From Huintestinicola sp. (GTDB lineage Bacteria; Bacillota; Clostridia; Oscillospirales; Ruminococcaceae): DNA of 64,000 nt. Both the position numbers and the translations under genes were made by a program. The stretch spans positions 2,052 through 66,051 of the forward strand of contig NZ_JBNMJV010000011.1 of the NCBI RefSeq assembly GCF_050874005.1. The letters run 5' to 3'. The stretch's first letter is position 1, and the number at the start of each line of letters is the position of its first letter. Of this stretch, positions 18,676 to 48,083 are shown piece by piece. The notes below the pieces were generated by a model. It was not told the origin of the DNA. It was given only the letters and a program-made list of their open reading frames with translations, and made no database searches.

Positions 18676-19308
18676 ATGAACAAAATGAACGAAGAAAAAT
18701 TTTTCGCCATAATCTCCCGAATGAAATATATAAACCGCTGGGGACTTATGCGAAACACCATAACCGAAAACATCAGCGAGCACAGCCTTGAAACGGCATT
18801 CATCGCCCACGTACTTGCCCTTTACAGAAATGTCCGCTTCAAAGGGAATGTTGACCCCCAGCGCTGTGCACTTCTTGCAATGTACCACGATGTCACCGAG
18901 ATAATCACAGGCGACCTGCCCACCCCCGTAAAATATTACAATGCGGAGATACGTGCGGAGTATGACAAGGTGGAGAAAATGGCTGAGGAGAAAATGCTTT
19001 CCTATCTTCCCGAAGATCTGCGGGAGTATTACCGCCCATTGCTGGGACATACCGAGGAGGAAAAGGAGCTTTGGAAGCTTGTAAAGGCGGCGGATAAGCT
19101 TTCCGCCCTGATAAAATGTGTGGAGGAGCGGCAGATGGGCAACTCCGACTTTACCGATGCGGAAAAATCCACCCTTGAAGCCATTCACGAGATGAATCTC
19201 CCCGAAGCGGAGGAATTTTTAAAAGAATTTATGCCTGCATATAATGGAACGCTGGATAAGCAGGCAGCGGGTGACGACCCGCAGCGACCTCGTTGGGATA
19301 TTTCGTAA
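18676..19308 (+). CDS. yfbR: 5'-deoxynucleotidase (HD domain, YfbR family)
   Basis: RMKYINRWGLM, ENISEHS, YHD...GDLPTPVK, ADKLSALIKC.EE motifs; start at 18676 or 18685. Confidence 0.9.
   Translation: MNKMNEEKFFAIISRMKYINRWGLMRNTITENISEHSLETAFIAHVLALYRNVRFKGNVDPQRCALLAMYHDVTEIITGDLPTPVKYYNAEIRAEYDKVEKMAEEKMLSYLPEDLREYYRPLLGHTEEEKELWKLVKAADKLSALIKCVEERQMGNSDFTDAEKSTLEAIHEMNLPEAEEFLKEFMPAYNGTLDKQAAGDDPQRPRWDIS
19267..19294 (+). repeat. Partial copy (first hairpin) of the stop-codon-associated repeat, translated as the YfbR tail
   Basis: GCGGGTGACGACCCGCAGCGAC nearly identical to the copies after typA and in folD. Confidence 0.65.
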
Positions 19309-19526
19309 AAGTCCTCTCATTTGTGGCACGGTCACTTTCAAAGGCACAAGTTCAAACCGCAGACCTAAACCGAATAGGCGTATGCCCCACCCCGAGAAAT
19401 GGAAAATCGCAAAAAAGAGATGTCGTGGTAAACAAATCCGAACAAAACCAAGCAAAGGACTTTAGTTAACAAGTCAAAGTACAACTGTAAAAATGCAGAA
19501 AGGGGGAGAGGGTAGGGAAAGAGGTC

Positions 19527-19610
19527 GCAAGGGGAAAACCGTAGGAGAGGGGGAAGTCCGCATTTTTGTTGGGTTTATTTCTTCTCCCTCTCCTTAGGTT
19601 GTCCCTTTGC
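19527..19610. repeat. Long imperfect inverted repeat (about 30-bp arms) in the yfbR-rplL intergenic region
   Basis: GCAAGGGGAAAACCGTAGGAGAGGGGGAAG ... CTTCTCCCTCTCCTTAGGTTGTCCCTTTGC. Confidence 0.65.
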
Positions 19611-19723
19611 CTACTCGCTAACAGGTTTAAGCAAAACCAAATTTCGTTAATCAAAATAATCAGACCGACATATTCCAATTTGACTCTCACTTTAAAATTA
19701 TCATAATCAAAAGGAAAATATAT

Positions 19724-19760
19724 AAAAAGGCGGTGCCGATAAAATCGGCACCGCCCAAAA
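19724..19760 (-). terminator. rplL terminator
   Basis: GGCGGTGCCGAT / ATCGGCACCGCC stem with a T-run on the minus strand. Confidence 0.8.
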
Positions 19761-19783
19761 GCGTTATATGTTCAAAACTCAGA

Positions 19784-20158
19784 TTACTTGAGCTCAACAG
19801 TAGCGCCTGCAGCTTCGAGCTTAGCCTTGAGCTCTTCAGCCTCAGCCTTGGGAGCAGCTTCCTTGAGGGTCTTGGGAGCAGCCTCAACAGCCTCCTTAGC
19901 CTCCTTGAGGGAGAGACCGCAAGCGTCCTTAACAGCCTTGATAACGTCCATCTTCTTGTCGCCGAAGGAAGCGAGAACAACGTCGAACTCAGTCTTCTCA
20001 ACAGCTCCATTATCGCCACCGTTATTAGCGGGACCTGCAGCAGCAACAACAGCGGTTACACCGTACTTTTCCTGGATAGCTTCAACGAGCTCAGCGAGCT
20101 CAAGAACAGAAAGAACATCGATCTGGTCTAAAATTGCAGTGATCTTTTCAGATGCCAT
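19784..20158 (-). CDS. rplL: 50S ribosomal protein L7/L12
   Basis: [52 protein letters not shown]. Confidence 0.98.
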
Positions 20159-20235
20159 GATAATAATCTCCTTTAAATTTTATTTTGTTTTAAGAAACAT
20201 TTTTGTTTCACGCCACAAAGCAATATAAATTATGC

Positions 20236-20745
20236 TTATGCAGCTTCCTCTGCCTTCTTGTCGGCGAGAGACTTGAGTGTAGCTGCGAGCTTCTGCATAG
20301 GACCCTGGAGAGAGCCAACGAGCTGAGCAAGCAGAACATCCTTGGAAGGGATCTTGGAAAGAGCCTCAACGCCCTTAGCGTCATAAACAGTACCCTCAAC
20401 AAATCCGCCCTTGAGGTTGAACTTGTCGTCGTGAGCCTCAGCAAACTTGCCGAGAATTCTTGCGGGAGCAGTCTGATCGTTCTCGCATACAGCGATAGCG
20501 GTAGTACCCTCGAGTACGCCGCAGAGATCTTCGAGACCGTTCTCCTTGAGAGCGATGCGGAGCATAGTGTTCTTCTCAACGAAGTACTTAACGCCTGCCT
20601 CTCTCAGCTCTTTTCTGAGCTTGGTATCCTCCTCAACGGTGATACCCTTGTAGTCAACGAGAACGCCCGAGCAGGAGTTCTTTACAAGCTCTGTAAGCTC
20701 GGCAGCTCTTGCCTTCTTGGATTCAAGAATCTTTGCGCTTGGCAT
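20236..20745 (-). CDS. rplJ: 50S ribosomal protein L10
   Basis: VDYKGITV...LRKELRE, VEKNTM, LSKIPSKDVLLAQL. Confidence 0.98.
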   Translation of the reverse strand: MPSAKILESKKARAAELTELVKNSCSGVLVDYKGITVEEDTKLRKELREAGVKYFVEKNTMLRIALKENGLEDLCGVLEGTTAIAVCENDQTAPARILGKFAEAHDDKFNLKGGFVEGTVYDAKGVEALSKIPSKDVLLAQLVGSLQGPMQKLAATLKSLADKKAEEAA

Positions 20746-20789
20746 AAAATTTCACCTCCGAAAAAGTTGAAAATTATGCTACCCATTCA

Positions 20790-20920
20790 TAAAAAAGAAA
20801 AATCCTTTCCCTGCAGTACAGGAAAGGAGCGTACAAACATAATAGTACAGCGATCTCTTTCCTCGGCAGGATTTACGGAAGTCATAGTTGCAGCCTGACT
20901 GCCACCTGCTGTCTTTAGAA
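20790..20920 (-). ncRNA. Ribosomal protein L10 leader (cis-regulatory) with attenuator terminator
   Basis: Minus strand CTAAAGACAGCAGGTG...TAAATCCTGCCGAGG matches the L10-leader core, followed by a TCCTTTCCTG/CAGGGAAAGGA + T-run terminator. Confidence 0.85.
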
Positions 20921-20957
20921 TATGATAGCTTTGTTATTTATTCAAACAACATCTAAT

Positions 20958-20986
20958 ACTATATCACATTATTTTCCCTTTGTCAA
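20958..20986 (-). promoter_or_regulatory. Sigma-A promoter of rplJL
   Basis: Minus strand TTGACA-17-TATAGT with TG extension. Confidence 0.75.
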
Positions 20987-21073
20987 GGGGTTTTTGAAAA
21001 TTTCTCAAATTTTTTCGGATAATATAAATGTGTATGCCCTGTCCTGCAGAATGTAAACATTTCGTTAACCCTA

Positions 21074-21111
21074 TTGCATTTCCAATATCTATATGGTATA
21101 CTCTAAGTATA
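21074..21111 (+). promoter_or_regulatory. Promoter of tetR-methyltransferase with a putative operator over the -10
   Basis: TTGCAT-17-TATACT; inverted repeat TATACT-CTA-AGTATA at 21097-21111. Confidence 0.55.
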
Positions 21112-21133
21112 CTAAATATAACAGGAGTATACT

Positions 21134-21763
21134 ATGAGCAGAGAAAATAAAAATGAAGCAGTTGCGGCAGTTCACAGGAAAAAAATTCTCGAAAGTGCAG
21201 GCAGGCTGTTTTCGGAAAAAGGCTTTGAAGCGGCGACTATCGAGGATATCTCCATAGCTTCGGGATACAGCAGACGGACTGTCTATGCCTATTTCCGAAG
21301 CAAGGAGGACATTCTCCACAGCTTTATTTGCGAGGGGCTTTCGGAGCTGAGCGGAGCGGTGAGGGATATCGTTTCCCGTGAAACGGACTTTGAAAAGCGG
21401 TGCAGGGAAATCTTTGATGCAATGGGTGAGTTTTATAGGAATTATCCTTTGGCGGCTGAGATAATAAACGGCTTCAAGCCGTCGGAAATGTCCGAGCCGT
21501 CCGAAGCGGCAAAGAGGATATTTGCTCTGGGCGAAGAGATAAACGACACTCTCGTCGGATTTGTAAGCGGCGGAATAGCGTCGGGAAACGTCCGCAAGGG
21601 CATCGTTCCCGAGCTGACGGTCTATATCCTCTGGTCGGAAATTTCTGCCTTTTACGGTCTTGTGCAGAGCAAAGGCGAATTTATCCGCAAGCGGTTTTCT
21701 TTTTCGGAAACAGAGCTTTGCGAATATGGATTTAAGCAGATATTCGGTTCAATTTTTAAGTGA
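21134..21763 (+). CDS. TetR/AcrR family transcriptional regulator
   Basis: ILESAGRLFSEKGFEAATIEDISIASGYSRRTVYAYFRSKEDI HTH. Confidence 0.92.
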   Translation: MSRENKNEAVAAVHRKKILESAGRLFSEKGFEAATIEDISIASGYSRRTVYAYFRSKEDILHSFICEGLSELSGAVRDIVSRETDFEKRCREIFDAMGEFYRNYPLAAEIINGFKPSEMSEPSEAAKRIFALGEEINDTLVGFVSGGIASGNVRKGIVPELTVYILWSEISAFYGLVQSKGEFIRKRFSFSETELCEYGFKQIFGSIFK

Positions 21764-21774
21764 GGAGAAACTTA

Positions 21775-22677
21775 ATGGATAACAGATCAAGTATGACAGC
21801 GCTTATGTCGGCATTTGCAAGGGCATATCATTTCAAAACGGAAAAGCAGCCTGTTTTTGCAGACAGCGCCGCAGAAAAGCTTATGACAATGGAGGAATAT
21901 GAGGGCATAGGGAAATATATCCTTAGCGGAATTGACTTTTTCGCTCCCGAGCAGAAAGGAAAGCTGCCCGACAGCGAGGCTCTCGGATATATCGTTAACA
22001 CACAGCTTGCGCCCACGCCTCTTGCGAGAGCGGCATTCTGCGAGGAAAGCCTTAAAACTGCAGCAATGACGGGAACGGAGCAGTATGTGATCATCGGCGC
22101 AGGGTATGATACCTTTGCTCTCAGGGAAAAAGCCTTTGTTTCCAAGCACCCCGTTTTTGAGGCAGACCACCCTCTGACGCAGGCTGACAAGCTTGAAAGA
22201 ATAAAACGTTTCGGACTTGCTTATAATGATAACGTAAAATCCGTTCCCGTTGACCTTGCCACGGAGGATATGTCCGAAAAAATTTTGGCGGCAGGCTTTG
22301 ACAGGACGAAAAAAGCATTCTTCTCCTGGCTCGGCGTAAGCTATTATCTGTCCGAAGAGGAGATAAGCAGGACACTCGGTGACATTGCAGGGCTTTGCTC
22401 CGAGGGCAGCTCACTTGTGTTTGACTTCGGAGACGAAGGGCTTTTTGACAGCACCGACAGGCGTGTAAAAAATATGCTGGCTATGGCAATGGCGGCAGGA
22501 GAGCCGATGAAAAGCTCGTTTGATAAGACTTCTCTTGCACGGCTGCTTGAAAAGCACGGATTTCTTATATATGAGCTGCTCGGTCCGAAGGACATAGAAG
22601 AGCGGTATTTCGGCGGTCAGAGAGAAGCGAAGCCCTTCCCGGATATAAATATGGTACTTGCGGTGTATAAGGGATAA
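21775..22677 (+). CDS. Class I SAM-dependent methyltransferase (LCM/O-methyltransferase type)
   Basis: SAFARAYH, QYVIIGAGYDTF, FEADHP.TQ..K, FFSWLGVSYYL. ATG at 21775 follows a GAGGAG RBS. Confidence 0.88.
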   Translation: MDNRSSMTALMSAFARAYHFKTEKQPVFADSAAEKLMTMEEYEGIGKYILSGIDFFAPEQKGKLPDSEALGYIVNTQLAPTPLARAAFCEESLKTAAMTGTEQYVIIGAGYDTFALREKAFVSKHPVFEADHPLTQADKLERIKRFGLAYNDNVKSVPVDLATEDMSEKILAAGFDRTKKAFFSWLGVSYYLSEEEISRTLGDIAGLCSEGSSLVFDFGDEGLFDSTDRRVKNMLAMAMAAGEPMKSSFDKTSLARLLEKHGFLIYELLGPKDIEERYFGGQREAKPFPDINMVLAVYKG

Positions 22678-22801
22678 CGCTGAAAGTCAAAATGTTACAG
22701 CTGTAACCGAATTGTGATTATTTTCCTGCCTTTTTTTCGGATTTTGTGAAAATCGTGCAAGATGTCGAGTAAATAACGAAAAAAATTTGTTATAATAATG
22801 G

Positions 22802-22830
22802 TTGTAGTGCATTTTGAATTGTGCTATAAT
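22802..22830 (+). promoter_or_regulatory. Sigma-A promoter of the small surface-protein gene
   Basis: TTGTAG-17-TATAAT with TGTG extension. Confidence 0.5.
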
Positions 22831-22876
22831 AAAACTATGCTAAAAGCACCAATACTAATGTTTGGAGGAAAAAATT

Positions 22877-23167
22877 ATGAAGAAGTTTCTTGCTGCTCTT
22901 GCAGCTTCTGCAATGGCACTTTCTATGATGGGCGTTTCCGCTATGGCTACCGGCCTTGACGGCGAAGGCGACGTTATCGACGACGAGACTGTAGAGGACG
23001 TTGTTGAGGAAACAGAAGTTGAGGAGACTGAGCCTGAGGTTGTTGAGACTGAGGCTGCTCCCGTTGAGACTGCTCCCTCTCCTGCAACAGGCAACTCTCC
23101 TGTAGCTATGGCTGTAATTCCCGTAGCTCTCGCTGCAGCTGCGATCGTTGCTAAGAAGGCTAAGTAA
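22877..23167 (+). CDS. Small acidic cell-wall-anchored protein (NPXTG-like sorting signal)
   Basis: GGAGG RBS; signal peptide MKKFLAALAAS...AMA; C-terminal SPATGN, hydrophobic segment and KKAK tail. Confidence 0.8.
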   Translation: MKKFLAALAASAMALSMMGVSAMATGLDGEGDVIDDETVEDVVEETEVEETEPEVVETEAAPVETAPSPATGNSPVAMAVIPVALAAAAIVAKKAK

Positions 23168-23190
23168 TCTGCCTTAAAAATGCAGTAACC

Positions 23191-23230
23191 AAGATCCGCT
23201 TTCACTTTACGGAAGGCGGATCTTTCTTTT
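23191..23230 (+). terminator. Intrinsic terminator
   Basis: AAGATCCGCTTTC / GAAGGCGGATCTT followed by a T-rich tail. Confidence 0.75.
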
Positions 23231-23300
23231 ATCTAATAACCATTTAAAAGCACCATAGACCCACTCTCTGCCGATAATGCTCTTATTCTGATCTTTAGTA

Positions 23301-23759
23301 TTAGTCCCTCCGATTCTTTTTAAAACAGCTTTTTTGAAGATACCATTCCGTAAAGCCGGAACCTCCCGTATCAATATCCTTTAATGCTTCCTTTTCCAAA
23401 GCACGCCGCTGCGAAAAGCTGTCATGATAATACTCTATCATTTCCGCTATTTTTTTGCCCGAAATAAATAAAGGCAGCGGACTGAAAATGTCCGAATATT
23501 TCCCTGCAGCTTCCGTACAGCTTACCGAAAAGCAGCCCAGAGGCGTAAGCAGTGCAAAGGAATATTCATCGCAGTGGCTGCCCATTCTTGTTATTGCAGA
23601 CGACATATAACGAGTTACTGTAAGACAGACATTTTTTTCTTCATCATATACCGCCGTAAGCAGATTTAAATTCTGATAGGAGTAATAATCGCCCGCCGAA
23701 GGTCTTGCCATATTGATTATCGCTTTACGCTGTTTGTCGTTTAGCAGAATTACTTTCAT
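23301..23759 (-). CDS. Hypothetical protein
   Basis: 152-aa ORF with AAGGGAG RBS and its own consensus promoter; no recognisable motif. Confidence 0.65.
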   Translation of the reverse strand: MKVILLNDKQRKAIINMARPSAGDYYSYQNLNLLTAVYDEEKNVCLTVTRYMSSAITRMGSHCDEYSFALLTPLGCFSVSCTEAAGKYSDIFSPLPLFISGKKIAEMIEYYHDSFSQRRALEKEALKDIDTGGSGFTEWYLQKSCFKKNRRD

Positions 23760-23863
23760 ATTGCTCTCCCTTTATCGGTTGATAATATCAATTATTTTAT
23801 CTGTTATGTGAGTTCTTATCCTTAATGCAGATCTCACGCCAAAGCTAACGAGTGTTTCCCAAT

Positions 23864-23892
23864 ATTATACCACAGCCGTTCCCGATTGTCAA
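23864..23892 (-). promoter_or_regulatory. Sigma-A promoter of ORF 23301-23759
   Basis: Minus strand TTGACA-17-TATAAT with TG extension. Confidence 0.7.
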
Positions 23893-24171
23893 GCATATAA
23901 TACTAAACATTTATTACTCACGAGGGACTCCCGGCATAAAAATCCATATATGCAAGATTTTCACGCCGATTTTTCTCCGCAAGTTAAATGGTGTTTAGTA
24001 TAAAATTATCACATCTATAAAAATTGCACAATGAAAACGATTAAAGTTTAGCACTTTGAATATAGATTTTTTGGGGAAAATATTGTATAATATGGTCATA
24101 AGTATATTTGCGGCTATACCGCAGTTTACTGTCAAAAAACACATTTCAAGAATAATTTGGAGGAGATCAAA

Positions 24172-24891: not shown

Positions 24892-24912
24892 GAGCTTTTT
24901 AAAGACTGTATT

Positions 24913-24950
24913 ATCCCCTGCCCGAAAAGCTTCCGGGCAGGGGATTTTCT
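24913..24950 (+). terminator. Intrinsic terminator
   Basis: ATCCCCTGCCCG / CGGGCAGGGGAT followed by TTT. Confidence 0.8.
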
Positions 24951-25020
24951 GCCAAACCATCGTGGTAATTATATACAAAATTGCCGCCCGATATTTTAAT
25001 TTTTCAAACGTTTACACGAC

Positions 25021-25049
25021 TTGACATTATTCGCAAGCTGTGTTATAAT
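25021..25049 (+). promoter_or_regulatory. Consensus sigma-A promoter with no adjacent gene
   Basis: TTGACA-17-TATAAT with TGTG extension. Confidence 0.65.
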
Positions 25050-25055
25050 CATAAT

Positions 25056-25144: not shown

Positions 25145-25216
25145 GTACATTTTGTATAAGGAAAATGCCAATAAATTGTGCAGTTCTCCAAAAATGTAAA
25201 AGTTGTTCTATAGATA

Positions 25217-26627: not shown

Positions 26628-27980
26628 ATGGGCAAAAGAGACCGATATAAGCTGCAGGAAAACGACTTCTTTAAAATTGACGGGCTGTCCGAGGCAGAGG
26701 GCGGCGTTGCCATTCCCCTCGATATATTTGAAATGCTGGAATCCTTCGTGTATGACAAGAAGATGCCCGATCCCCGAGGCATCAATAGTTATATGCTGTC
26801 TGCCGAGGGTGAGGGAAATAACCGTATCCTCCGTGCAGGCGGATACGTAGGCGCACTGGTTTTCAAGGACGGCACGCAGATAGAGATACTGCCTATGCTG
26901 TCCGCAAAAAACAACAAAGGCGAGGAGCTTTCGAGCAAAAGAGTTTTTCTGAATATGCTCAAATCAATGAAAAATCTTCCTCTCACAAATTATAACCTGA
27001 ACACACGAGCTTCCGAAAACCTTAATGTTTTCGAGTCGTTTATCCTTGCGTTCATCAACGAGGTCTCGGGCATCGTCAGAAATGGTCTGAAGCAGAGCTA
27101 TCAGCCGATAATCGAAAACGAGCACTTTCTGAAAGGCAAGGTAGTTTACGCAAAGCACGCTACGAAGAATTTTGCCCACAAGGACAAATTCTTCGTTCAG
27201 TACGACGTTTTCTCCATTGACCGACCCGAGAACAGGCTTATCAAATCCTCACTCAAATATCTGAGAAACATCACCTCCTCCGCCCGAAGCAGAAACAAGC
27301 TTGATGCTCTTATCGCTAATTTTGACGGAGTAGAGTATTCGATGAACTACCAGCAGGATTTTGCATCTTCCGTTCTTGACAGAAGTATGGCAGGCTATGG
27401 AAACGCCCTCAGATGGGCGGAAATATTCCTCCTCAGCCGCTATGTAACGGTTACAAGCGGAAGGAATGTGGCATATGCCGTAATATTCCCCTCGGGAGAG
27501 CTTTTCGACAGCTATACTGCATACAGCCTCGGACGTATGCTTGACAATCAGCGATTTAAGATAGAGCTGCAGAAGAAGCGTTATCCGAGACTTAACCGTC
27601 CAATGCCCCGTGACAGCGCACAGGCTCTTGCAGTTATGACCAGCCGTGCAGACGGTATGAGAGTAGTTTTCGACTCGAAGTGGCAGGAGCTTTCCTCCGA
27701 CGATGAAAATATGGGCATTTTGCAGACGGATATATACGATCTGTATAATCTTCTTGAAATATACAAAGCGCAATCAGTCTGCTACATATATCCCCTTACC
27801 CGTGAAATGAAAGAGGATCGCCGTGAGATATGCTTCAAAAACGAGGACGGTATTCTCGGACGTGTATATTTCGTGGATATCGGAGATATGGAAAACAGCC
27901 TGTCTGTCGTGCTTGAGCATATTTTCGGTCAGAAGATTGAAGACTCCGAACACAGGCGTGCGGCAGGAGCGACAATGTAA
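26628..27980 (+). CDS. mcrC: McrC-family protein with a degenerate PD-(D/E)xK nuclease site
   Basis: GYVG, IEILP, ENEHFLKGK, YDVFSIDRPENRLIKS and FDSKW are McrC features; the RPD and QxxxY motifs are not found. Confidence 0.82.
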   Translation: MGKRDRYKLQENDFFKIDGLSEAEGGVAIPLDIFEMLESFVYDKKMPDPRGINSYMLSAEGEGNNRILRAGGYVGALVFKDGTQIEILPMLSAKNNKGEELSSKRVFLNMLKSMKNLPLTNYNLNTRASENLNVFESFILAFINEVSGIVRNGLKQSYQPIIENEHFLKGKVVYAKHATKNFAHKDKFFVQYDVFSIDRPENRLIKSSLKYLRNITSSARSRNKLDALIANFDGVEYSMNYQQDFASSVLDRSMAGYGNALRWAEIFLLSRYVTVTSGRNVAYAVIFPSGELFDSYTAYSLGRMLDNQRFKIELQKKRYPRLNRPMPRDSAQALAVMTSRADGMRVVFDSKWQELSSDDENMGILQTDIYDLYNLLEIYKAQSVCYIYPLTREMKEDRREICFKNEDGILGRVYFVDIGDMENSLSVVLEHIFGQKIEDSEHRRAAGATM

Positions 27981-27981: not shown

Positions 27982-28016
27982 GCGGGTGACGAGCGGGGGG
28001 CGCCCCGCAGCGAAGT
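27982..28016 (+). repeat. Degenerate copy of the stop-codon-associated repeat
   Basis: GCGGGTGACGAGC...CCGCAGCGA immediately after the mcrC stop. Confidence 0.45.
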
Positions 28017-28104
28017 TGCACTGTGCGTTTGTGCGGACTGTCAGCTTTGTCTCTGCGCCGATATATTTTGTATCAGCCTGATAATTTATAAAGCTTGAAT
28101 ACAC

Positions 28105-29837: not shown

Positions 29838-30024
29838 GCAACGCATTTACACCGTTACCGAGCCGCCCGTCTGCCGCCCAAATAAACTATAGAACGAGCG
29901 GCTGCAGGCTCAGCCTGCTCGTCACCTGCTTATTTTTAAAGGTAACGCATTTGTATAGTTACCGAGCCGTCAGCCTGCCGCCCGAATAAACTATAGAACG
30001 TCTCGCCGCGGGTCGTCACCCGCC
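29838..30024 (-). repeat. Two copies of the stop-codon-associated two-hairpin repeat after typA
   Basis: Minus strand GCGGGTGACGACCCGC..CGTTCTATAGTTTATTCGGGCGGCAG..GGCTCGGTAAC, then a second copy starting GCAGGCTGAGCCTGC. Confidence 0.85.
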
Positions 30025-31845
30025 TTACTTCTCTTTAGCCTTTGTCTTGGCTCTCAGCGCATTGTCAAGGATACGCTTTCTTATTCTGATAGACTTGGGA
30101 GTTACCTCAAGAAGCTCGTCATCGGCAATGAACTCAAGGCTGTCCTCAAGGGAAAGCTTTCTGGGAGGAACAAGTCTCAGCGCATCGTCCGAACCGCTTG
30201 CACGTGTGTTTGTCAGGTGCTTCTTCTTGCAGACATTTACCACAAGATCCTCCACCTTGGGAGATGCGCCAACAACCATTCCCTCGTAAACGGGAGTGCC
30301 TGCGCCGATAAAGAGCGAACCACGCTCCTGAGCGTTATACAGACCATAGGTAACAGCCTCGCCCGTCTCAAAGGAAATAAGGGAGCCTGTGTTTCTTCTT
30401 GGGATATCTCCCTTGTAAGGCTGGTAGGAATCGAAAATGCTGCTCATAACGCCCTCGCCCTTGGTGTCGGTGAGGAATTCGCTCTTGTATCCGAAAAGGC
30501 CTCTTGCGGGAATGATAAATTCAAGTCTCATACGGCTGCCCTGGGGGTGCATAGACTGAAGCTCGCCCTTTCGTGTGCCCATTTTCTCCATAACGGAGCC
30601 TGTGCAGTCCTCGGGGACGTCGATAACAAGCCTTTCCATAGGCTCGCACATCACGCCGTCAATTTCCTTCATAAGAACTCTCGGTGTGGAAACGCCAAGC
30701 TCATAACCCTCTCTTCTCATATTCTCAATGAGAATGGAAAGGTGCATCTCACCACGTCCGCATACTCTGAATGCGTCGGTGTTCTCGGTTTCGGAAACTC
30801 TCAGGGAAACGTCTCTCAGCACTTCCTTGAAAAGTCTTTCACGAAGCTGACGGGAGGTAACGAACTTGCCCTCTCTGCCTGCAAAGGGGCTGTCGTTAAC
30901 GGAGAAGGTCATTTCAACGGTAGGCTCGGAGATCTTCACAAATGGCAGCGGCTCATAATTATCCGCAGCGCAGAGGGTGTCGCCGATGGTGATGTTCTCA
31001 ATACCCGATATCCATACAATATCGCCAACCTTTGCCTCGTCAACGTTCTGCTTGCCGAGACCTTCTATCTGGCTTATGGTAACGATCTTGCTGTTATAGG
31101 GCTTCTTGGTCTCGTGGTAATCGCCTACGATAACAGGCTGATTAACCTTGATAACGCCTCTTTCCACACGTCCGATACCCGTTCTGCCCACATAATCGTT
31201 GTAGTCGATAGAGGAGATGAGCATCTGCATAGGACCTTCCTCATCGCCCTCGGGAGCGGGGATATAGTCGAGAATGGTGTCAAAAAGGGGCTTGAGGTCT
31301 GTTCCTGTCTCGTACTGGCTGATAGAGCAGGTGCCTGCACGGCCGGAGCAGAAAAGGATAGGGCTTTCAAGCTGTTCGTCATTAGCGTCAAGGTCGAGAA
31401 GAAGCTCAAGCACTTCGTCGCCTATCTCGTCAAGACGAGCGTCGGGACGGTCGATCTTGTTAACAACGATGATTATCTTGTGACCCAGCTCAAGAGCCTT
31501 AGAAAGCACGAAGCGTGTCTGGGGCATAGGTCCCTCTGCTGCGTCAACCAGCAGAAGAACGCCGTCAACCATTTTGAGGACACGCTCCACCTCGCCGCCG
31601 AAATCGGCGTGGCCCGGGGTGTCGATGATGTTTATCTTAACGCCGTTGTACTTAACGGAGGTATTCTTTGCGAGAATGGTAATGCCTCTTTCACGCTCGA
31701 TGTCGTTGGAGTCCATTACTCTGTCCTCCACCTCCTGATTTTCTCTGAAAGCGCCGCCCTGCTTGAGCATTTCGTCAACAAGGGTGGTCTTTCCGTGGTC
31801 AACGTGGGCGATGATTGCAATATTTCGCAGATCGTTTCTTACCAT
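30025..31845 (-). CDS. typA: Translational GTPase TypA/BipA
   Basis: [55 protein letters not shown]. Confidence 0.98.
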
Positions 31846-33683: not shown

Positions 33684-33896
33684 ATGTCCGAAAGAAAAAG
33701 GAAAGCCGAATATTATCTCAGCATCATAAGCATTTTCATCATCTCCGCCGCCGCACTTGCGGTGGGCAGCGCCATTGTGACCGTCAACTGCCACAACGCA
33801 ATGAGCAGCGACAAAATGACCCTTTTTGACATCAGCTCCGAGGGCGGCAACGTTATTATCACAGTTATGGACAAGGACTACAGGCTGGCAGGCTGA
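33684..33896 (+). CDS. Small hypothetical membrane protein
   Basis: 70 aa with one TM segment, directly after spoIIP with an AAGGA RBS; its stop lies inside a repeat copy. Confidence 0.65.
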   Translation: MSERKRKAEYYLSIISIFIISAAALAVGSAIVTVNCHNAMSSDKMTLFDISSEGGNVIITVMDKDYRLAG

Positions 33897-33953
33897 GCCT
33901 GCAGCCAATCGTTCTATAGTTTGTTTGGGGCGATAAACATACGGCTCGGTAAC
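33888..33953 (+). repeat. Copy of the stop-codon-associated two-hairpin repeat
   Basis: GCAGGCTGAGCCTGCAGCCAATCGTTCTATAGTTTGTTTGGGG...CGGCTCGGTAAC. Confidence 0.8.
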
Positions 33954-34161
33954 GGAAGAAATATGTGTAATTTTTTGCAACAGCCTCAAAGGGGATGGGT
34001 CTCTGTTAAGAGACCACGTTTTCCGTCCCGCTGCCTTTCTGATTTATTATTTCTAATAAAAATAAAAAGAGACGTTTAAAGAATAAAGAAAAAAGAATAA
34101 ATAATAAATTATAATGTATATTTGCCAAAACAGCCCGTCTGTATCATACGCAGACAGGCTG

Positions 34162-34986: not shown

Positions 34987-35080
34987 CATAAAGATCATAA
35001 TTTATTATTTATTCGTTATTATAAAGCCTGCGGACGGGAGACCTGTTACCTGCATTTATAGGATAAAGGCTGATTTTCAG

Positions 35081-35168
35081 GCAACATATTTGTATTGTTA
35101 CCGAGCCGCCACTTTGCCGCCCGAATAAACTACAGAACGAGCGGGTATAAGCTGAGCTTGGCTCAGCC
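35081..35168 (-). repeat. Copy of the stop-codon-associated two-hairpin repeat after the MCP gene
   Basis: Minus strand GCTGAGCCAAGCTCAGC..CGCTCGTTCTGTAGTTTATTCGGGCGGCA..GCGGCTCGGTAACAATACAAATATGTTGC. Confidence 0.8.
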
Positions 35169-35181
35169 TTACTCAGTCTGC

Positions 35182-37182
35182 TTATAGCTTGAATTCGGAA
35201 ATAAGACCGCTGAGCATTGAAGCCTGACCGCTCAGCTCCTCGCTGGAAGCGGCACCCGACTGAGCGGTGTCTGCGGTGGTGCTTACCACCTCGGAAATAG
35301 CGTTTATTCCTTGGAAAACGCTGCCCATAAACTCGCTCTGCTCTCTTGCGGTATCGGATATCCGTCCGATGTTCTCGTCAACACGGGCGGTGTCGGCAAC
35401 AGCCTCTGCAAGCGCCTTGGCGGTTGAGTCAGCCAGAGCAGCACCTGCCGCAACGGCTTCGGTGGTCTGATTTATGAGCTTGGAAGTGCGGTTTGCGGCT
35501 TCTGCAGATTTGCCTGCAAGGTTTCTTACCTCGTCGGCAACAACGGTAAAGCCCTTTCCTGCCGCACCTGCTCTTGCCGCCTCAACGGAAGCGTTAAGAG
35601 CAAGGATATTTGTCTGGAATGCGATATCGTCAATGGTCTTGACTATCTTTGCTGTCTCGGCGCTCATTTCGGATATCTCGTTCATAGCATCGAGCAGCTT
35701 GTTCATTTCACGGTTGCTTTCCTCCAGCTTGACCCTTGCGCCCTCGGCAAGTTCACGAGCCTCGCAGGCGTTCTTGTCGCTGTCCTTCACCTTTTCAATG
35801 ATAACGGACATATCGGAGTTGAGCTTTTTGAGATTTTCCGTTTGACTGTAAACGCCCTCGGCAAGACGTGTAGAGGACTGAGCCACATTTGCGGCGCCCA
35901 GATTTACCTGACCCGAAGCGACCTCGATGTTATTAAGAGTATTTCGCATAGATGTGATAATATTCGTGAGTGACTCCTTTATGGGAGCGAAATCGCCGAT
36001 ATAATCCTCCGTGACATTTACCGTAAAATCGCCCTTTGCAAGACGGTCGAGCTTTTCGGAGATATCGGAGATATATCGTCTTGTGGTATCGGTGCAGCGT
36101 GCGAAATTCGAGCAGAGGATACCGATATCATCGGTTGAATTGTAATCGAAGCCTGCAGAAAGATCACCTGCGGCAATTTTCTCGGCAACAGCGCTTATCT
36201 TCTTGAGGGGCTTTACGCTTACCTTGATAACTCCCACAACAACTGCTGTGCCTACTGCAAGGAACACGAGAGTGAGGATGATGTAGATGACCGCAAGACC
36301 GTTAAGAGAGCCGTCAATGTCGTTTTTGGGGCATACATAGCCCAAAGTCCAGTCGGCGGAGGAAAGCCTGCTGAAAACGAAATATTTCTGCGAACCGTCA
36401 AAATCCTTGTTCAGATCCATATAAATGCCGTCGGAAAGCTGCGAGAGGACTTCGGCATAATCTCCCCCTGCGTCAGCGGCAGCGGTGATGACCGCATTTC
36501 CGTCCTCGATCTTAGGGCTCAGCGCCTCATTTCCGTGAAGCATAATGTTTCCGTCGCCGTCGATGAGAACGGGAAAACCGTTCTCGGTAAGCTGCATCTG
36601 ACTTGCCAGCTCCATTATGTAATCAAGGGTGATGTCGCAGCCGAAAACGCCCACAAGGTTGCCGTTTTCGTAAATAGGCGACGCAACGGTTATGACCATT
36701 GCACCCGTAGCGGTGTCGATATAGGGAGCGGTGATGATGGTGGATCCGGAGTCGTAAGCGCTCCGGTACCAGCCTCTTGTGGTGGCGTCAAAGCCCTCGG
36801 GAAGGGTCGAGGTGTCGGTGACAGCCATATAAAGGGCGGTGTCATTGTATGCTGTGTAGCAGTCAAGGAGAGCGTCGTTCAGGGTCATTGCAGAGTCAAG
36901 GAATTTGTCGTTAAATCTGCGGTTGCCTGCGCCCGGGACAAGATTTCCCGCCGCATTTGCCTGAGCTTCGCAGAATGTTGCCTGCTCGGAAAGCCAGGCG
37001 TCTATCTTTTCCCTGTAAACGGTGATGGACTGCTTTACCGATGACTGAATGCCGCTTTTTGTCCTTGAATAGGAGAAAGTGAAGCCTATCACGGATATAA
37101 GCGTCAGAGCCACAGCAATGGTAATAACTACAGAAATAATGATGGATCTGATAAGACCCGCAGATTTTTTTGAGCCGTTCAT
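35182..37182 (-). CDS. Methyl-accepting chemotaxis protein with dCache sensor and HAMP domain
   Basis: Two TMs; RGWY...[12 protein letters not shown] Cache motif; [34 protein letters not shown] signalling domain. Likely start at 37182. Confidence 0.95.
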
Positions 37183-42495: not shown

Positions 42496-42504
42496 TGAAA
42501 AATT

Positions 42505-42927
42505 ATGCCCTATTTTCTCATAATTTTCGGTGCCGCTCTGGTAATAATATCTGTACTGGCGCATAAAAAAGCCATTGTGAAAGAAAATGAGCTTCAACGC
42601 TTCATATCTCTTGCAAAGGAATATGAAGCGGTGGTGCTTGATACCCCGAAGGAAAAAAAGAAAAGGTCGGCGGTGATACAGATACGTATCGAGGAGCAGA
42701 AGCGCACCCTTGTTCATCGCTGTACAGAGCCGTTTGTGGGCAATTACAAGCGTGGAGACAGGATAAGCGTGTACCTTATCGAGCAGATGCCTGCCGACCG
42801 CTCCCTGATAAAAGGGGACAACCGCTTTGAAAAATTCATAAGCACCGAAAAAAAGCTGAGGCTCCCCGTAATGATATCCGGGGCGGCTGCGGCTGTTGTC
42901 GGGATAATACTTCTTTTTCTAAGATGA
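42505..42927 (+). CDS. Hypothetical membrane protein (N- and C-terminal TM)
   Basis: 140-aa ORF in line with hflX with two hydrophobic ends. Confidence 0.65.
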   Translation: MPYFLIIFGAALVIISVLAHKKAIVKENELQRFISLAKEYEAVVLDTPKEKKKRSAVIQIRIEEQKRTLVHRCTEPFVGNYKRGDRISVYLIEQMPADRSLIKGDNRFEKFISTEKKLRLPVMISGAAAAVVGIILLFLR

Positions 42928-43006
42928 AAAACTTGTGAAATAAGTAGAATTTTCCCGAAAGATGTGTTATACTTAAATAAATGATTTTTATATCGGAGAT
43001 GATAAA

Positions 43007-44281
43007 GTGACCCATCGCAAAAGAACGGAAATAGGCAAAGGGATAGGTCTGACCGTCCTTACAGACCCCAAATTCAAGACCAACGGCATTGTCATAAATC
43101 TTGTGTGCAGACATACAAAGGAGACTGCCGCCGCAAATGCCGCAGTTGCCTTTATGATTGAGGACACCTGCAAAAAGTACCCCACCGTCACCGAATTTAA
43201 CAGGCGGCTGGGAATGTTATACGGAGCAAGCGTGAATACGGGTATCAGCCGCCGCTCGGACAGCGTGCAGATAACCGCCGCCGCTTCCTGCATTGCGGAT
43301 AAATATGCCCTGAACGGCGAGGATATCACCCGTCAGACTGCAGAGCTTCTTACAGAGTGCCTTTTTGAACCCGTTACCGAGCTTGTAAACGGTGAGGAAT
43401 GTTTCCCCGAAAAGCAGTTTCAGCTTAAAAAGCAGGAGCTTATTGACGATATAGACGCAGATATCAATGATAAAAGAGGCTATGCATTAAAAAATGCAGG
43501 CAGGATAATCTATGAAGGCGAGCCTGCGGGAATACCCCTCAAGGGTGAGCGCTCCGAGGCAATGGCTCTTACAGCTTCGGAGGTATATAAGGCATATAAG
43601 AATATTCTCAGAACTGCAAGGATAGAGATCGTCTGCGTGGGCTGCGAGATATCCCCCGAATGTGAAAAGCTTATAACCGACCGCTTTTCCGCTATGGACA
43701 GGGGAGAGATATACGAGCCTGTAAACAGCACCTCACCTGCAAAGTCCTCTCCCGTAAGCAAGACCGACAGACTTGAAGTGGCACAGAGCAAAATGGTTAT
43801 GGCGTATAAGACTCCCGAGACAGATTACGCCGTATCAAAGCTCTTTAATGCGCTGCTTGGCGGCACACCTTTTTCAATGCTTTTTAAGAGCGTAAGAGAA
43901 AAGCTGAGCCTCTGCTATTACTGCTCCGCAAGCGTGAGCCGCAGAAAGGGCGTAATATATATCGACAGCGGCATTGAAAAGGAAAATATCGAGCCTGCCA
44001 AAAACGAGATAATGAAGCAGGTGGAAATGGCGGCAAAGGGTGAATTTACCGATGAACTGCTCCAAAAGACCAAGCTTCTCCTTACCTGCGCCCTGAAATC
44101 TGTTTTCGACTCACCGAAAGCCGCCGCAGACTGGGTATCCGACGGATATCTTGACGGAGATATCTTCTCTCCCGAGGAAGCGGCTGAACGGATAAACGCC
44201 GTTACAAGAGAGCAGATATGCGAATACGGCAGATCTCTCAAGCTTGATACGGTCTATGTTTTAACGGGAAAGGAGGACTGA
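43007..44281 (+). CDS. M16 family peptidase-like subunit (YmfF-like, no HxxEH)
   Basis: LGGTPFSMLFKSVREKLSLCYYC and IDSGI M16 C-terminal motifs; paired with the next gene. Confidence 0.85.
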   Translation: MTHRKRTEIGKGIGLTVLTDPKFKTNGIVINLVCRHTKETAAANAAVAFMIEDTCKKYPTVTEFNRRLGMLYGASVNTGISRRSDSVQITAAASCIADKYALNGEDITRQTAELLTECLFEPVTELVNGEECFPEKQFQLKKQELIDDIDADINDKRGYALKNAGRIIYEGEPAGIPLKGERSEAMALTASEVYKAYKNILRTARIEIVCVGCEISPECEKLITDRFSAMDRGEIYEPVNSTSPAKSSPVSKTDRLEVAQSKMVMAYKTPETDYAVSKLFNALLGGTPFSMLFKSVREKLSLCYYCSASVSRRKGVIYIDSGIEKENIEPAKNEIMKQVEMAAKGEFTDELLQKTKLLLTCALKSVFDSPKAAADWVSDGYLDGDIFSPEEAAERINAVTREQICEYGRSLKLDTVYVLTGKED

Positions 44282-45568
44282 GTGATGAAAAAGGAAATAA
44301 TTTCCAATGCCCGCACAGGTGAAAAATACACAAGAGTGCTTCACGACAGCGGACTTGAGATACTTATCTGGAAAACCGAAGGACACAGCGTAAAGCACGC
44401 TCTTTTCGGCACCCGCTACGGCTCGGTGAACACCACCTTCAAGACCTCCGACGACCCGGATTTCGTTACCGTACCAAACGGCATTGCCCATTATCTTGAG
44501 CATAAGCTTTTCGAGAACGAGGACTGCGATGTTTTCGACCTCTACGCACAGACAGGAGCTTCGGGAAACGCTTACACCTCATTTGACAGGACCTGCTATC
44601 TGTTTTCCTGCACCGATAATTTCATTCCGTCTCTGAGAATACTTCTGGATTTCGTACAGAAGCCCTATTTCACCGAGGAAACTGTCCGCAAGGAACAGGG
44701 AATAATCGGGCAGGAGATAAGAATGTACGACGACAGCCCCGACTGGAAGGTGTTTTTCAATCTACTTGAGGGCATATACCACAAAAACCCCGTAAGGATA
44801 GATATTGCAGGCACACAGGAGTCTATCGCAATGATAAACGCCGACCTGCTTTACCGCTGCTATAATACGTTCTACAATCTCCACAATATGGTGCTTGCCA
44901 TTGCGGGAGACGTAGACGAGGACGAGATACTTTCCGTCTGCGACGAGCTTTTAAAGCCCTGCGAGAATAAGGATCTTGTTTCCATCGTTCCCGATGAGCC
45001 CGATACCGTTAAGGACAGCTACAGGGAGCAGAGCTTCGAGGTAGCCGTTCCTATGTTCAATCTTGGCTTCAAATCAAAGCCCGTGAGCAATGATGATATC
45101 GTCAGGGAAACAGTTCTCTGCAATATGGCGGAGGAGCTTCTTATGGGCGAAACATCGGAGCTTTACAAGACCCTCTATGACGGCGGACTTATAAATTCCG
45201 CATTTTATTTTGAGACCTTCTCGGGAGACGGCTTCTTCGTTCCCATTTTCGGCGGCGAGTCACGTGACCCCGAAAAGGTTCGGGAAATGCTTAATGCCGA
45301 GATAAAGAGGCGTTTGACCGAGGGCTTTGACCCCGAAAGCTTTGAGATAGCAAGAAAGCATTATTACGGCTCTCTCATAAAGGGTCTCGGCAGTCCCGAG
45401 TCCATAGCCACGGGGCTTATAAACGCAGGACTCCGAGGCACAGGAGACGCATTCTCGGTCATCGAAGCGGTGGCAAATGCCTCTCTCGAGGACGTAAACG
45501 CCTGCCTTAAAACACGTTTTGATACGGATAATAGCACTCTTTCCGTTATCCGTCCCATAGAAAAATAA
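44282..45568 (+). CDS. M16 family zinc peptidase (YmfH-like)
   Basis: GIAHYLEHKLFE, NAYTSFDRTCYLFS, KEQGIIGQEI.MY.D. Confidence 0.92.
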   Translation: MMKKEIISNARTGEKYTRVLHDSGLEILIWKTEGHSVKHALFGTRYGSVNTTFKTSDDPDFVTVPNGIAHYLEHKLFENEDCDVFDLYAQTGASGNAYTSFDRTCYLFSCTDNFIPSLRILLDFVQKPYFTEETVRKEQGIIGQEIRMYDDSPDWKVFFNLLEGIYHKNPVRIDIAGTQESIAMINADLLYRCYNTFYNLHNMVLAIAGDVDEDEILSVCDELLKPCENKDLVSIVPDEPDTVKDSYREQSFEVAVPMFNLGFKSKPVSNDDIVRETVLCNMAEELLMGETSELYKTLYDGGLINSAFYFETFSGDGFFVPIFGGESRDPEKVREMLNAEIKRRLTEGFDPESFEIARKHYYGSLIKGLGSPESIATGLINAGLRGTGDAFSVIEAVANASLEDVNACLKTRFDTDNSTLSVIRPIEK

Positions 45569-45596
45569 AAATTCCCGAAAGGACTGAACATCACAA

Positions 45597-46616
45597 ATGA
45601 ACGAAGTCGGAAGACTTTACGGAGATAACATCGTTTTTCCGGGACTGGGAATTGATATCACCGTTGATAACGAGGCTTTTTCCCTTTTCGGACTGTCCAT
45701 AAAGTGGTACGGCGTGCTTATCGCTCTGGGAATGCTGCTGGCAATGATATACTGCTTCAAGCGCACAAAGGAGTTCGGCATAGATGGCGACCGCCTTACG
45801 GACGCAGTATTCGCAGGACTTATCGGAGCGGTCATAGGCGCAAGGCTCTACTATGTGGCACTCCACGCAGAAAGCTTCCACGATATCAAGGAGGTTTTCG
45901 CCATACGGGACGGCGGACTTGCCATATACGGCGGAATAATCGGAGCGCTGTTATTTGGCTGTATCACCGCAAAGCTGCGAAAGCTGCGAATACTCCCCAC
46001 CCTCGACCTTGCCGCAATGGGCTTTCTTATCGGACAGTCTCTCGGCAGATGGGGCAATTTCTTCAATCAGGAAGCATTCGGCTGCAATACCACCCTTCCC
46101 TGGGGAATGTCGGGCGGCAAAATTCAGCAGTATCTTGTAAATCATCAGGCATCTCTTGCGGCGCAGGGAATGGATATAAACCCTTATGTACCTGTTCACC
46201 CCTGCTTCCTCTATGAGTCAATTTGGTGCGCTGTGGGATTTATCCTGCTCCATTTTTATCATAAGCACCGCAAATTTGACGGAGAGGTTTTCTGTATGTA
46301 CGTGTTCTGGTACGGCTTGGGCAGGTTCTTTATCGAGAGCCTCAGAACGGACAGCCTTTATATCGGCAGCGTCAGAGCGTCGCAGATGCTGGCACTCATA
46401 AGCGCCATTGCCGCACTTGCCCTTATTATCATAATGAGGGTGAGAGTGAAGAAAAAGGGCGTTTCACTTTATCGTGACAGCCAGGAGTCAAAGGCTATAC
46501 TAGAAGCTGCGGCAAATGCGGAAAAGGAAGAAGCCGAGAGGAAAGCAGCAAAGAAGCATAAGGAACTCACAGCAGAGCAGAAAATTGTTGAGGACGAGAA
46601 CGAGGAAGATAACTAA
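45597..46616 (+). CDS. lgt: Prolipoprotein diacylglyceryl transferase
   Basis: IKWYG, GARLYYV, GGLAIYGGIIG, GRWGNFFNQE, HPCFLYES, RFFIESLRTD. Confidence 0.96.
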   Translation: MNEVGRLYGDNIVFPGLGIDITVDNEAFSLFGLSIKWYGVLIALGMLLAMIYCFKRTKEFGIDGDRLTDAVFAGLIGAVIGARLYYVALHAESFHDIKEVFAIRDGGLAIYGGIIGALLFGCITAKLRKLRILPTLDLAAMGFLIGQSLGRWGNFFNQEAFGCNTTLPWGMSGGKIQQYLVNHQASLAAQGMDINPYVPVHPCFLYESIWCAVGFILLHFYHKHRKFDGEVFCMYVFWYGLGRFFIESLRTDSLYIGSVRASQMLALISAIAALALIIIMRVRVKKKGVSLYRDSQESKAILEAAANAEKEEAERKAAKKHKELTAEQKIVEDENEEDN

Positions 46617-46640
46617 CAAACTCACCTGACCCCCAAAGGT

Positions 46641-46891
46641 AAAAGTTTCGCTCAAGCCTTTTCTAAAGGCTTGCAGGTTTCCAAAGGGCAGAGCCCTTTG
46701 GTCGCCCTCCGCAGAGGGCGAAATCCCCTTTACGAAGGAGCTCCGCAAAGGGGTGAATTGAAAACAGTCCAGTGGACTGTTTTCAAGAGGGGAACGCCCT
46801 GCGATAGAGGGCGGGCTTGGAACAAGACCAATTCCCCTCCGGGATTGTTAAGGGCTTTGCCCTTAACACAATGCGCCCCCAAGGCGCATTG
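46641..46891. repeat. Cluster of back-to-back palindromes (REP/MITE-like or structured RNA)
   Basis: At least seven stems, including CAAGCCTTT/AAAGGCTTG, CCAAAGGGC/GCCCTTTGG, TCGCCCTC/GAGGGCGA, TTGAAAACAGTCC/GGACTGTTTTCAA, TGTTAAGGGC/GCCCTTAACA and CAATGCGCC/GGCGCATTG. Confidence 0.75.
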
Positions 46892-46973
46892 CTTATAGCG
46901 TTCTGTTTTCTAACCTAAAAGCCAGTTTTATTGCGAACAGAAAAAACAAAATAATATAATGGAGGAAAAAACA

Positions 46974-47843
46974 ATGGCAAATCTTATCGACGGCAAGGCA
47001 GTATCCGCAAAGGTAAAGGCTCAGGTAAGAGCCGAAGCCGAGGAGCTTAAAGCAAAGGGCATATCCATAGGTCTGGCAGTAGTTATCGTGGGCGATAACC
47101 CCGCTTCAAGAGTGTATGTCAACAATAAGAAGAAGGCCTGCGCCGAGGTAGGCTTTGAGTCATTCGAGTACGCTCTCCCCGAAGAGACCACCGAAGCAGA
47201 GCTTCTTGAACTGGTCGACAAGCTCAATAACGACAGCAGGGTGAACGGCATACTCGTCCAGCTTCCTCTCCCCAAGCAGATAAACGAGACCGCCGTTATC
47301 AACGCTATCCGTCCCGAAAAGGACGTTGACGCATTCCACCCCGAAAATGTGGGACATATAATGATAGGCGATTATTCCTTCCTCCCCTGCACCCCCGCAG
47401 GCGTAATGGAGCTTATCGCAGACACAGGAGTAGATGTGTGCGGCAAAAACTGCGTAGTTATCGGCAGAAGCAATATCGTGGGCAAGCCTATGGCAATGCT
47501 CCTGCTCCATAAAAACGGCACAGTCACAATCACCCACTCAAAGACCAAGAATCTCAAGGAAATATGCGCCGCTGCTGATATCCTTGTTGCCGCTGTAGGC
47601 AAAGCAAAATTCGTAACTCCCGATATGGTGAAGGAAGGCGCTGTAGTCATTGACGTAGGTATGAACCGCAACGAAGAGGGCAAGCTCTGCGGAGACGTTG
47701 ATTTTGAAGCCTGCAAGGATAAGGCGGGCTACATAACCCCCGTTCCCGGCGGCGTAGGTCCTATGACCATTGCAATGCTTATGAAAAATACCCTTACCGC
47801 CGCAAAGCAGGCGGGTGAAGATCCGCAGCGAGACGTTCTGTAA
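46974..47843 (+). CDS. folD: Bifunctional methylenetetrahydrofolate dehydrogenase/cyclohydrolase
   Basis: IDGKAVS, GILVQLPLP, KDVDAFHPEN, PCTPAG, GRSNIVGKP, TPVPGGVGPMT. ATG at 46974 follows GGAGG. Confidence 0.97.
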   Translation: MANLIDGKAVSAKVKAQVRAEAEELKAKGISIGLAVVIVGDNPASRVYVNNKKKACAEVGFESFEYALPEETTEAELLELVDKLNNDSRVNGILVQLPLPKQINETAVINAIRPEKDVDAFHPENVGHIMIGDYSFLPCTPAGVMELIADTGVDVCGKNCVVIGRSNIVGKPMAMLLLHKNGTVTITHSKTKNLKEICAAADILVAAVGKAKFVTPDMVKEGAVVIDVGMNRNEEGKLCGDVDFEACKDKAGYITPVPGGVGPMTIAMLMKNTLTAAKQAGEDPQRDVL

Positions 47844-48083
47844 TTTATTCGGGCGGCAGACTGTCGGCTCGGTAACGGCAGGCTGAGCCTGCAGCCTCTC
47901 GTTCTGTAATTTATTCGGGCGGCAGACTGTCGGCTCGGTAACGGCAGGCTGAGCCTGCAGCCTCTCGTTCTGTAATTTGTTCGGGCGGCAGACTGTCGGC
48001 TCGGTAACGGCAGGCTGAGCCTGCAGCCTCTCGTTCTATAGTTTATTCGGGCGGCAGGTTATCGGCTCGGTAACGATACAAAT
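47811..48083 (+). repeat. Tandem array (66-bp period, about 4 units) of the two-hairpin repeat, overlapping the folD 3' end
   Basis: CGTTCT recurs at 47834, 47900, 47966 and 48032; the units are near-identical with no variable spacer. Confidence 0.95.

Follow-up and report, generated by a model that had tools for sequence, protein, structure and literature searches.

A modular, hairpin-headed repeat family with a tendency to lie at stop codons in Huintestinicola sp.

What is a short, hairpin-forming repeat doing at the stop codon of one gene after another? The question is raised by the window, our term for the whole 64,000-nucleotide (nt) stretch of Huintestinicola sp. DNA analysed here (contig C11:2052-66051 of a 2.9-Mb, 88-contig genome, 100% complete). 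An earlier reading of its letters, the original prediction, described copies at six named sites, always co-oriented at a gene's stop codon, and proposed either a REP-like or small mobile element that targets 3' ends or an mRNA 3'-end module. The repeat is present at all six sites, co-oriented with the upstream gene and touching its stop at each. We consider it probable that it represents a non-autonomous, modular mosaic intergenic repeat family of the REP/BIME/BOX kind, restricted to one genus. The family is apparently undescribed, of a known kind, and not a new RNA gene.

Using an nhmmer profile made from the 43-nt core of the repeat unit, we counted 75 core copies in 61 arrays or loci of the window's own genome, far above chance, so the repeat is a genome-wide family. 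The true copy number is probably greater than 75, because 12 of the 61 arrays sit at contig ends. The two-hairpin element itself occurs in at least seven other species of the genus. A composite query matched 16 of the 24 genomes searched from that genus, whereas 16 other genera yielded practically nothing. Only 5-6 true matches were present among 241 million metagenome records, and the viral contigs, phages and plasmids searched held no match to the element. Its typA relatives place the window's genome among rumen or gut Ruminococcus of the R. flavefaciens group. Of the predicted identities, a REP-like or small mobile element located at 3' ends has the best support, given the multiple copies, the limitation to the genus, presence or absence between genomes, tandem variation and the hairpin head.

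A unit consists, in order, of a GC-rich hairpin head of 15-16 nt, a 7-nt spacer, the 43-nt core and a variable tail. The head has a 6-bp stem and a loop of TGA or GACG. Its main alleles are a (H1a, GCGGGT-GACG-ACCCGC) and b (H1b, GCAGGC-TGA-GCCTGC), and its minor ones GCAGGT/ACCTGC, GCGGGG/CCCCGC and the longer c (H1c, GGCTGAG…CTCAGCC); the 99 head pattern matches comprised 47 of a type and 52 of b type. The spacer goes with the head allele (AGCGAGA with a, AGCCNNT with b), and the b head is often preceded by one to three additional copies of its own first ten bases, GCAGGCTGAG. The core, CGTTCTRTARTTTATT–variable–CGGCTCGGTAAC, begins CGTTCTRTAR, which includes the CGTTCT(A/G)TA linker as originally described, and ends in a near-invariant 3' box, CGGCTCGGTAAC. 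The tail reads (G)RTACAAATA… and then often GATAAATCGRAAT.

Units were found singly, in direct tandem and as inverted doublets. Arrays hold one to four units, with a period of 66 nt at folD and about 100 nt in other species, and inverted doublets (for example C1:173856-174041, C72 and C60) are a minority compared with head-to-tail arrays. Single units have no terminal inverted repeats; head and tail are unrelated except for about 5-7 nt (GGCAG…CTGCC) in some copies. At least two non-core bodies likewise carry the a head, as at 19267 and 27982 in the window. These two copies had been taken for partial and degenerate members of the family and are really the same head on different repeat bodies. 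Heads, cores and tails are thus exchanged with other repeat modules, and the family is a mosaic system rather than a single element. We also saw mini-forms of 22-30 nt in which GCAGGC is fused straight to GGCTCGGTAAC (G009:C20; G016:C17, L115:494-512). These are consistent with internal deletion between GCAGGC-like repeats inside one unit.

Only the first of the two predicted hairpins held up as a structure. In a set of 94 different copies, drawn from the window's own genome and from others, 95% of the head's stem cells pair; shuffling the 3' arms between copies lowers this to 83% (maximum 86%). Two to three Watson-Crick pair types are present at each of stem positions 3 and 6 (GC/AT; TA/CG/GC), and other lineages carry further compensatory heads (ACAGGC/GCCTGT and TCGGGC/GCCCGA). 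That the head's structure is kept through two-sided changes is therefore well supported, and the three forms of hairpin 1, with differing sequence and kept pairing, are compensatory alleles as stated. Hairpin 2 did not survive as a helix: its mean folding z-score against shuffles was −0.13. The 5' arm varies from copy to copy and the 3' arm, CGGCTCGGTAAC, is almost constant, so it is a sequence box and not a conserved helix. RNAalifold returned no consensus structure from a mixed alignment, because a and b heads misalign.

Placement relative to genes depends on the type of head. We scored a co-oriented stop lying −36 to +21 nt from the core start, against a null of random placement in permissive DNA. 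Such a stop abuts 17 of the 37 b-type arrays versus 12.9% expected (p = 9 × 10−7); among a-type arrays with a core the figure was 5 of 24, which was not significant (p = 0.19). Half of the solo a heads (12/24) abut or contain a stop. Taking all heads together, 35 of 89 have a stop within the element or no more than 12 nt upstream. At least ten genes have as their stop the TGA of a GCAGGCTGA unit, giving a protein that ends in -Ala-Gly. The head therefore lies on, or a few bases past, a co-oriented stop far more often than chance would place it, and the element often supplies the stop. Other species show the same gene-end placements. Some ten copies, most of them a-type, begin right after the T-run of a terminator-like hairpin, where they would mostly lie outside the mRNA. 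One copy lies between two co-transcribed operon genes (C5:74561).

We rejected the idea of a designed three-frame stop in b-type units. All frames are closed within 66 nt, but so they are in roughly 27% of random 66-mers (a rough estimate). Moreover, the TAA/TAG variation in the linker mirrors A/G variation at an adjacent non-stop position, and the loop TGA reads TGT or TAT in other lineages, so the pattern is suggestive only.

The claim that the repeat is always co-oriented at a stop was right for the six sites of the window and wrong for the genome, where 41 arrays are co-oriented with the upstream gene and 18 are opposite. The bias belongs to the GCAGGC (b) type. Tallied from the array tables, with c counted under b, b-type arrays were co-oriented in 28 cases and opposite in 7, and a-type arrays with a core showed no orientation bias (13 versus 11). 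The strand-specific tie to the upstream gene in the GCAGG type is real, a tendency rather than a rule. On the large contigs orientation follows the upstream gene by 32 to 13, and it agrees with GC skew by only 28 to 18, near the 64% baseline of the genes themselves. Replication-strand bias therefore fails as the source of the orientation.

Comparison with sister species revealed turnover of the repeat at fixed loci, with the caution that these empty and filled sites are compared between species, whose flanks have often been replaced. Flanks in G041 are about 80-87% identical to those of the window's genome and flanks in G009 90-96%. G041 has clean empty sites at three loci, and just the b unit at typA. 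Of the 28 loci that could be compared with G009, about 9 have no element in that species, 12 are larger, and several similar; the folD array has three units in G009 and four here. Presence or absence and changes in copy number at the same loci are thus what the proposed comparison of filled and empty sites brought out. Elements at folD, typA and C35:23390 are common to species at orthologous sites.

Four junctions could be read to the base: ATG|TGA to ATG-GCA-GGC-TGA, AGA|TAA to AGA-GCA-GGC-TGA, GTA-TAA to GTA-TGA-GCAGG, and AAATAC-TGA to GCAGGC-TGA. In all four, the head's GCAGGC-TGA lies at the old stop or within two codons of it, and the native downstream sequence, including the terminator, is gone. 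No target duplication was visible at the clean empty sites and exact junctions examined, apart from a possible TAAG duplication at typA, where the comparison is again between species with often-replaced flanks.

If the family is a non-autonomous repeat, its copies would have spread as DNA by a trans-acting function that has no visible gene in this genome, or alternatively by recombination that swaps the 3' intergenic segment. On this account, the sense orientation and the abutting of stops would arise from a preference for insertion at gene ends plus selection. Early stop codons could render 3'-terminal insertions harmless, and a stable hairpin in the 3' untranslated region (UTR) may be tolerated, or be mildly useful as a barrier to 3'-exonucleases. 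Several observations sit badly with this account. The complete genome has no mobilising enzyme among the families searched, and neither terminal inverted repeats nor target-site duplications were seen at the junctions examined. All four exact cases replace native sequence past the stop, where plain transposition predicts simple interruption. Selection alone does not easily account for heads 0-2 codons from the old stop as opposed to anywhere in the 3' spacer. Finally, because the folD, typA and C35:23390 sites are common to species, some copies are old, and old copies might have been retained for a function.

The rival that survives best, though we judge it unlikely, is that the repeat is a host-selected RNA module of the 3' UTR, serving as an exonuclease block, a processing mark or a means of tuning translation termination, with copies kept as useful. 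The strong stop adjacency, the orientation by upstream gene rather than by replication strand, the compensatory pairing of the head, the orthologous copies at three loci and the copy inside an operon would all suit such a module. Pairing in the core is also stronger in sense (−6.7 kcal/mol) than in antisense (−2.6 kcal/mol), through G-U pairs, but this gap follows from the core's G+T-rich composition, and shuffled sequence folds as well. Against such a module, the TGA of the loop varies in other lineages, and Rfam offered no match: nothing in the window reached the gathering score, the sole match was at chance level (E = 7.7, on the typA copies), and permissive E-values added just generic long-hairpin noise on neighbouring palindromes. 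More distant relatives have no element 3' of typA, and even a close species lacks it at 9 of 28 loci; since the element is missing at those loci in relatives, no gene depends on it. The anti-oriented copies (18 of 59 arrays), the roughly ten copies behind terminators and the rapid loss between species argue against an RNA role as the main explanation.

The junctions raise a further reading, which we regard as improbable: placement would be directed to translation stops and not sorted by selection, with the head joined in sense at a stop, within two codons of it or at the end of a T-run, and the 3' segment replaced. The target might be an R-loop or single-stranded DNA, exposed at the points at which translation and transcription come apart or terminate, or the 3' end might be replaced by an RNA-templated route. 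If true, this would turn the repeat into a mobile 'gene-end cassette' whose way of recognising its target has no described parallel among bacterial repeats. Only its unexplained precision at stop codons could lift the family beyond a known kind.

It is very improbable that the repeat derives from a REPIN/RAYT or IS200/IS605 system and moves as single-stranded DNA, its hairpin recognised by a Y1 (HUH) transposase and its bias reflecting the lagging-strand template. Such an enzyme would fit the GC-rich hairpin at one end, the orientation specificity without target duplication, the REPIN-like inverted doublets, and a and b heads that differ in insertion context as if a guide sequence differed. 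However, searches of the whole genome for Y1/RAYT (PF01797), IS110, TnpB, reverse transcriptase, rve and DUF772 gave no match. Within the genus, only 4 genomes out of 30 have PF01797, most genomes that bear the element are without it, and the Y1 loci examined carry no element copy. With neither Y1 nor reverse transcriptase in this genome, and no element at those Y1 loci, the suggested RAYT or reverse-transcriptase gene flanked by the same hairpins was not found. The statement that the window has no transposase was borne out, as seven transposase and reverse-transcriptase families had no match on its contig. In addition, the foot of the hairpin carries no conserved GTAG/CGTC-type tetranucleotide, and, with gene orientation allowed for, the direction of the copies is not tied to GC skew.

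There is as little to recommend a classical MITE (a miniature transposable element with inverted repeats), that is, an insertion sequence with an internal deletion that a DDE transposase moves in trans, and we give this reading a very small chance. The repeat is small, non-coding and multi-copy, it is present or absent between species, and a composite of about 870 nt with inverted element copies at its ends resembles an element with long terminal inverted repeats. Single units are nevertheless asymmetric, and no target duplications were seen at the junctions. We found no multi-copy protein or transposase in the genome, and the genes between inverted element copies are ordinary housekeeping genes. 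The sole transposase-like sequences are two single-copy DDE remnants that share no sequence with the element: a DDE_Tnp_1 gene broken by a stop codon (C17:11799-13148) and an IS5-like fragment at a contig end (C53:13466-13981). The composite, a palindrome at C38:20381-21260 (L001:1521-2400), consists of a separate repeat, family X, and a central palindrome between two inverted element copies. We rejected it as a full-length parent, as it resolves into a nest of separate repeat families, one of which, X, stands alone in other species. It is not at the same locus in G009, where 60 nt of native terminator sequence stand instead of about 870 nt.

Recombination sites for a tyrosine or serine recombinase are the least credible explanation: integron attC sites lie at the 3' end of cassettes and can contain a stop codon, and the present copies resemble them in their co-orientation at gene 3' ends, their imperfect palindrome with a conserved box containing TAAC and the replacement of entire 3' segments from the stop codon on, but they are scattered behind housekeeping genes without cassette arrays, their box GTTACCG does not fit the attC core RYYYAAC/GTTRRRY by inspection, and no dedicated integrase was noticed beside any copy, although no search aimed at intI was made.

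Among known systems, the closest precedent for a non-autonomous repeat of this kind is pneumococcal BOX (boxA-boxB(n)-boxC), a likeness that we would put down to analogy and not homology. Both have a Firmicute host and a modular build, with an internal module repeated a variable number of times in tandem, and neither carries a gene; both form hairpins, are enriched 3' of genes and supply stops. In 36 cases, an upstream gene takes its stop codon from a BOX element (Croucher et al. 2011, PMC3049150), and here at least ten genes are served in this way. BOX differs in its host genus and in its terminal inverted repeats, which resemble those of ISSpn2 and have no counterpart seen in the present repeat. 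The likeness is one of organisation. The present repeat also abuts genes through a 6-bp GC hairpin head with the stop in its loop, and its b type is strongly sense-biased.

With REP, BIME and REPIN sequences the family has in common short, GC-rich, high-copy intergenic hairpins, mosaics with other motifs, inverted doublets, and positions at gene 3' ends and within operons. Stop-proximal REP hairpins reportedly affect translation and mRNA stability, as Newbury et al. in 1987 and Liang et al. in 2015 are said to have found; in the latter work Liang, Rudd and Deutscher reportedly showed that E. coli REP hairpins within about 15 nt of the stop tune translation termination. Unlike BIMEs, whose REPs alternate in orientation, the present arrays are direct with a 66-nt period. 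Unlike REPs, the hairpin carries a long conserved non-palindromic core, the host is a Firmicute, and the genome has no RAYT/Y1. One account gives as a criterion for REPs that one end of the palindrome bears a conserved tetranucleotide, GTAG or CGTC (PMC3733652). The present head has no such tag, and the bases 5' of it vary (TAA, TGA, TTTA, T-run, CTG and others).

Further resemblances are to the MIRUs of Mycobacterium, reportedly described by Supply et al. in 1997. Like these, the repeat lies between genes in tandem units of 50-100 nt that share the orientation of the flanking genes and overlap the upstream stop with their ends, and its copy number varies, between species at folD as it does between strains for MIRUs. 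MIRUs differ in having no hairpin head and in carrying small open reading frames (ORFs) through which translation is coupled to the gene downstream; in the present repeat neither an ORF of this sort nor a start codon is evident.

The copies in the window illustrate the range of junctions. The folD array (47811-48089, + strand) comprises four units with cores at 47834, 47900, 47966 and 48032, the first of H1a type and the second to fourth of H1b type. Translation of folD itself (46959-47843) continues across the first head (…QAGEDPQRDVL) and ends with the TAA of the linker, 47841-47843. A solo H1a head, GCGGGTGACGACCCGC followed by AGCGA, lies at 19267-19289 (+) with another body in place of the CGTTCT core; it falls within the 3' end of a 241-aa ORF (18583-19308) and is translated as AGDDPQR. 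The C-terminal residues encoded by a heads are thus …AGEDPQRDVL in folD and …AGDDPQRPRWDIS in ORF 18583-19308. Because such residues stand at the C-termini of both proteins, the repeat has altered the C-termini of housekeeping proteins. At 27982-28070 (+), an H1a fragment and the hairpin GCGGGGGGCGCCCCGC sit on a different body (AGCGAAGTTGCACTGT...GCTTTGTCTCTGCGCCGATA), beginning 1 nt past the TAA of ORF 26628-27980.

Behind typA, two units lie on the − strand. The H1a-type unit (29937-30023; head 30008-30023, then spacer, core 29958-30000 and tail) begins 1 nt after the typA stop (30025-30027) and is present in G009 and not in G041. The H1b-type unit (29838-29918; head GCAGGCTGAGCCTGC, core 29854-29896, tail) occupies the same locus in both G041 and G009, and the typA terminator follows it. 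An H1b-type unit at 33888-33975 (+, core 33910-33953) provides the stop of a 70-aa ORF (33684-33896), which is the TGA of its hairpin loop at 33894-33896. The H1c-type unit at 35080-35181 (−; head GGCTGAGCCAAGCTCAGC, core 35097-35139, tail) has a decamer-like GCAGACTGAG directly after the TAA (35182-35184) of a 669-aa ORF.

Other repeats share this territory. Family X (GCAAAGGGACAACCTAAGGGGAGGGG…) is a hairpin of about 95-125 nt. The genome has some 20 copies of it, many of which lie at contig ends; several sister species have X by itself, and a partial copy lies in the window at 19349-19681 (strand not assigned). Another family has AT-rich arms (TTTATTCTTTATTATTTATTCTTTA and its complement), at 34078-34101 and around 35020-35075 of the window. 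It also flanks C8:61937, C25:35284, C53:6168, C3:36101 and C5:6339, and its hairpin CTTGTAGGGGACGGGTCTCCCGTCCC…CAAG occurs in about eight places, often beside or around the element studied here. A portable cassette of stop, UTR and terminator with a GGGACGGG…CCCGTCCC hairpin was considered and dropped: about eight clear copies exist, five of them adjoining cores, so it is not general. In G009, the typA terminator hairpin (ATCGGCTGATGTTCGTTCATCAGCCGAT) is present twice 3' of typA (C71:5350-6500, L145), with an insertion of about 370 nt between the two. A homoserine-kinase-like gene outside the window (C25:38600-39523) ends in a Cys/His-rich repeat, …GTCECHGTCECHGTCEC, and has element copies on both sides with their hairpin heads toward the gene.

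With this apparently undescribed family, the few small interspersed repeats that are well characterised gain a member from a Gram-positive anaerobe. The family is a second, independent case, after pneumococcal BOX, of a repeat that routinely rewrites the last codons and the stop of housekeeping genes. In practice, such repeats break assemblies and make spurious C-terminal differences between orthologues, and they could serve as strain-typing markers. With exact stop junctions, a sense bias independent of replication and no recognisable transposase, the family is a good system for studying how such repeats spread, and it suits equally the question of whether they come to lie at gene ends by targeting or by selection.

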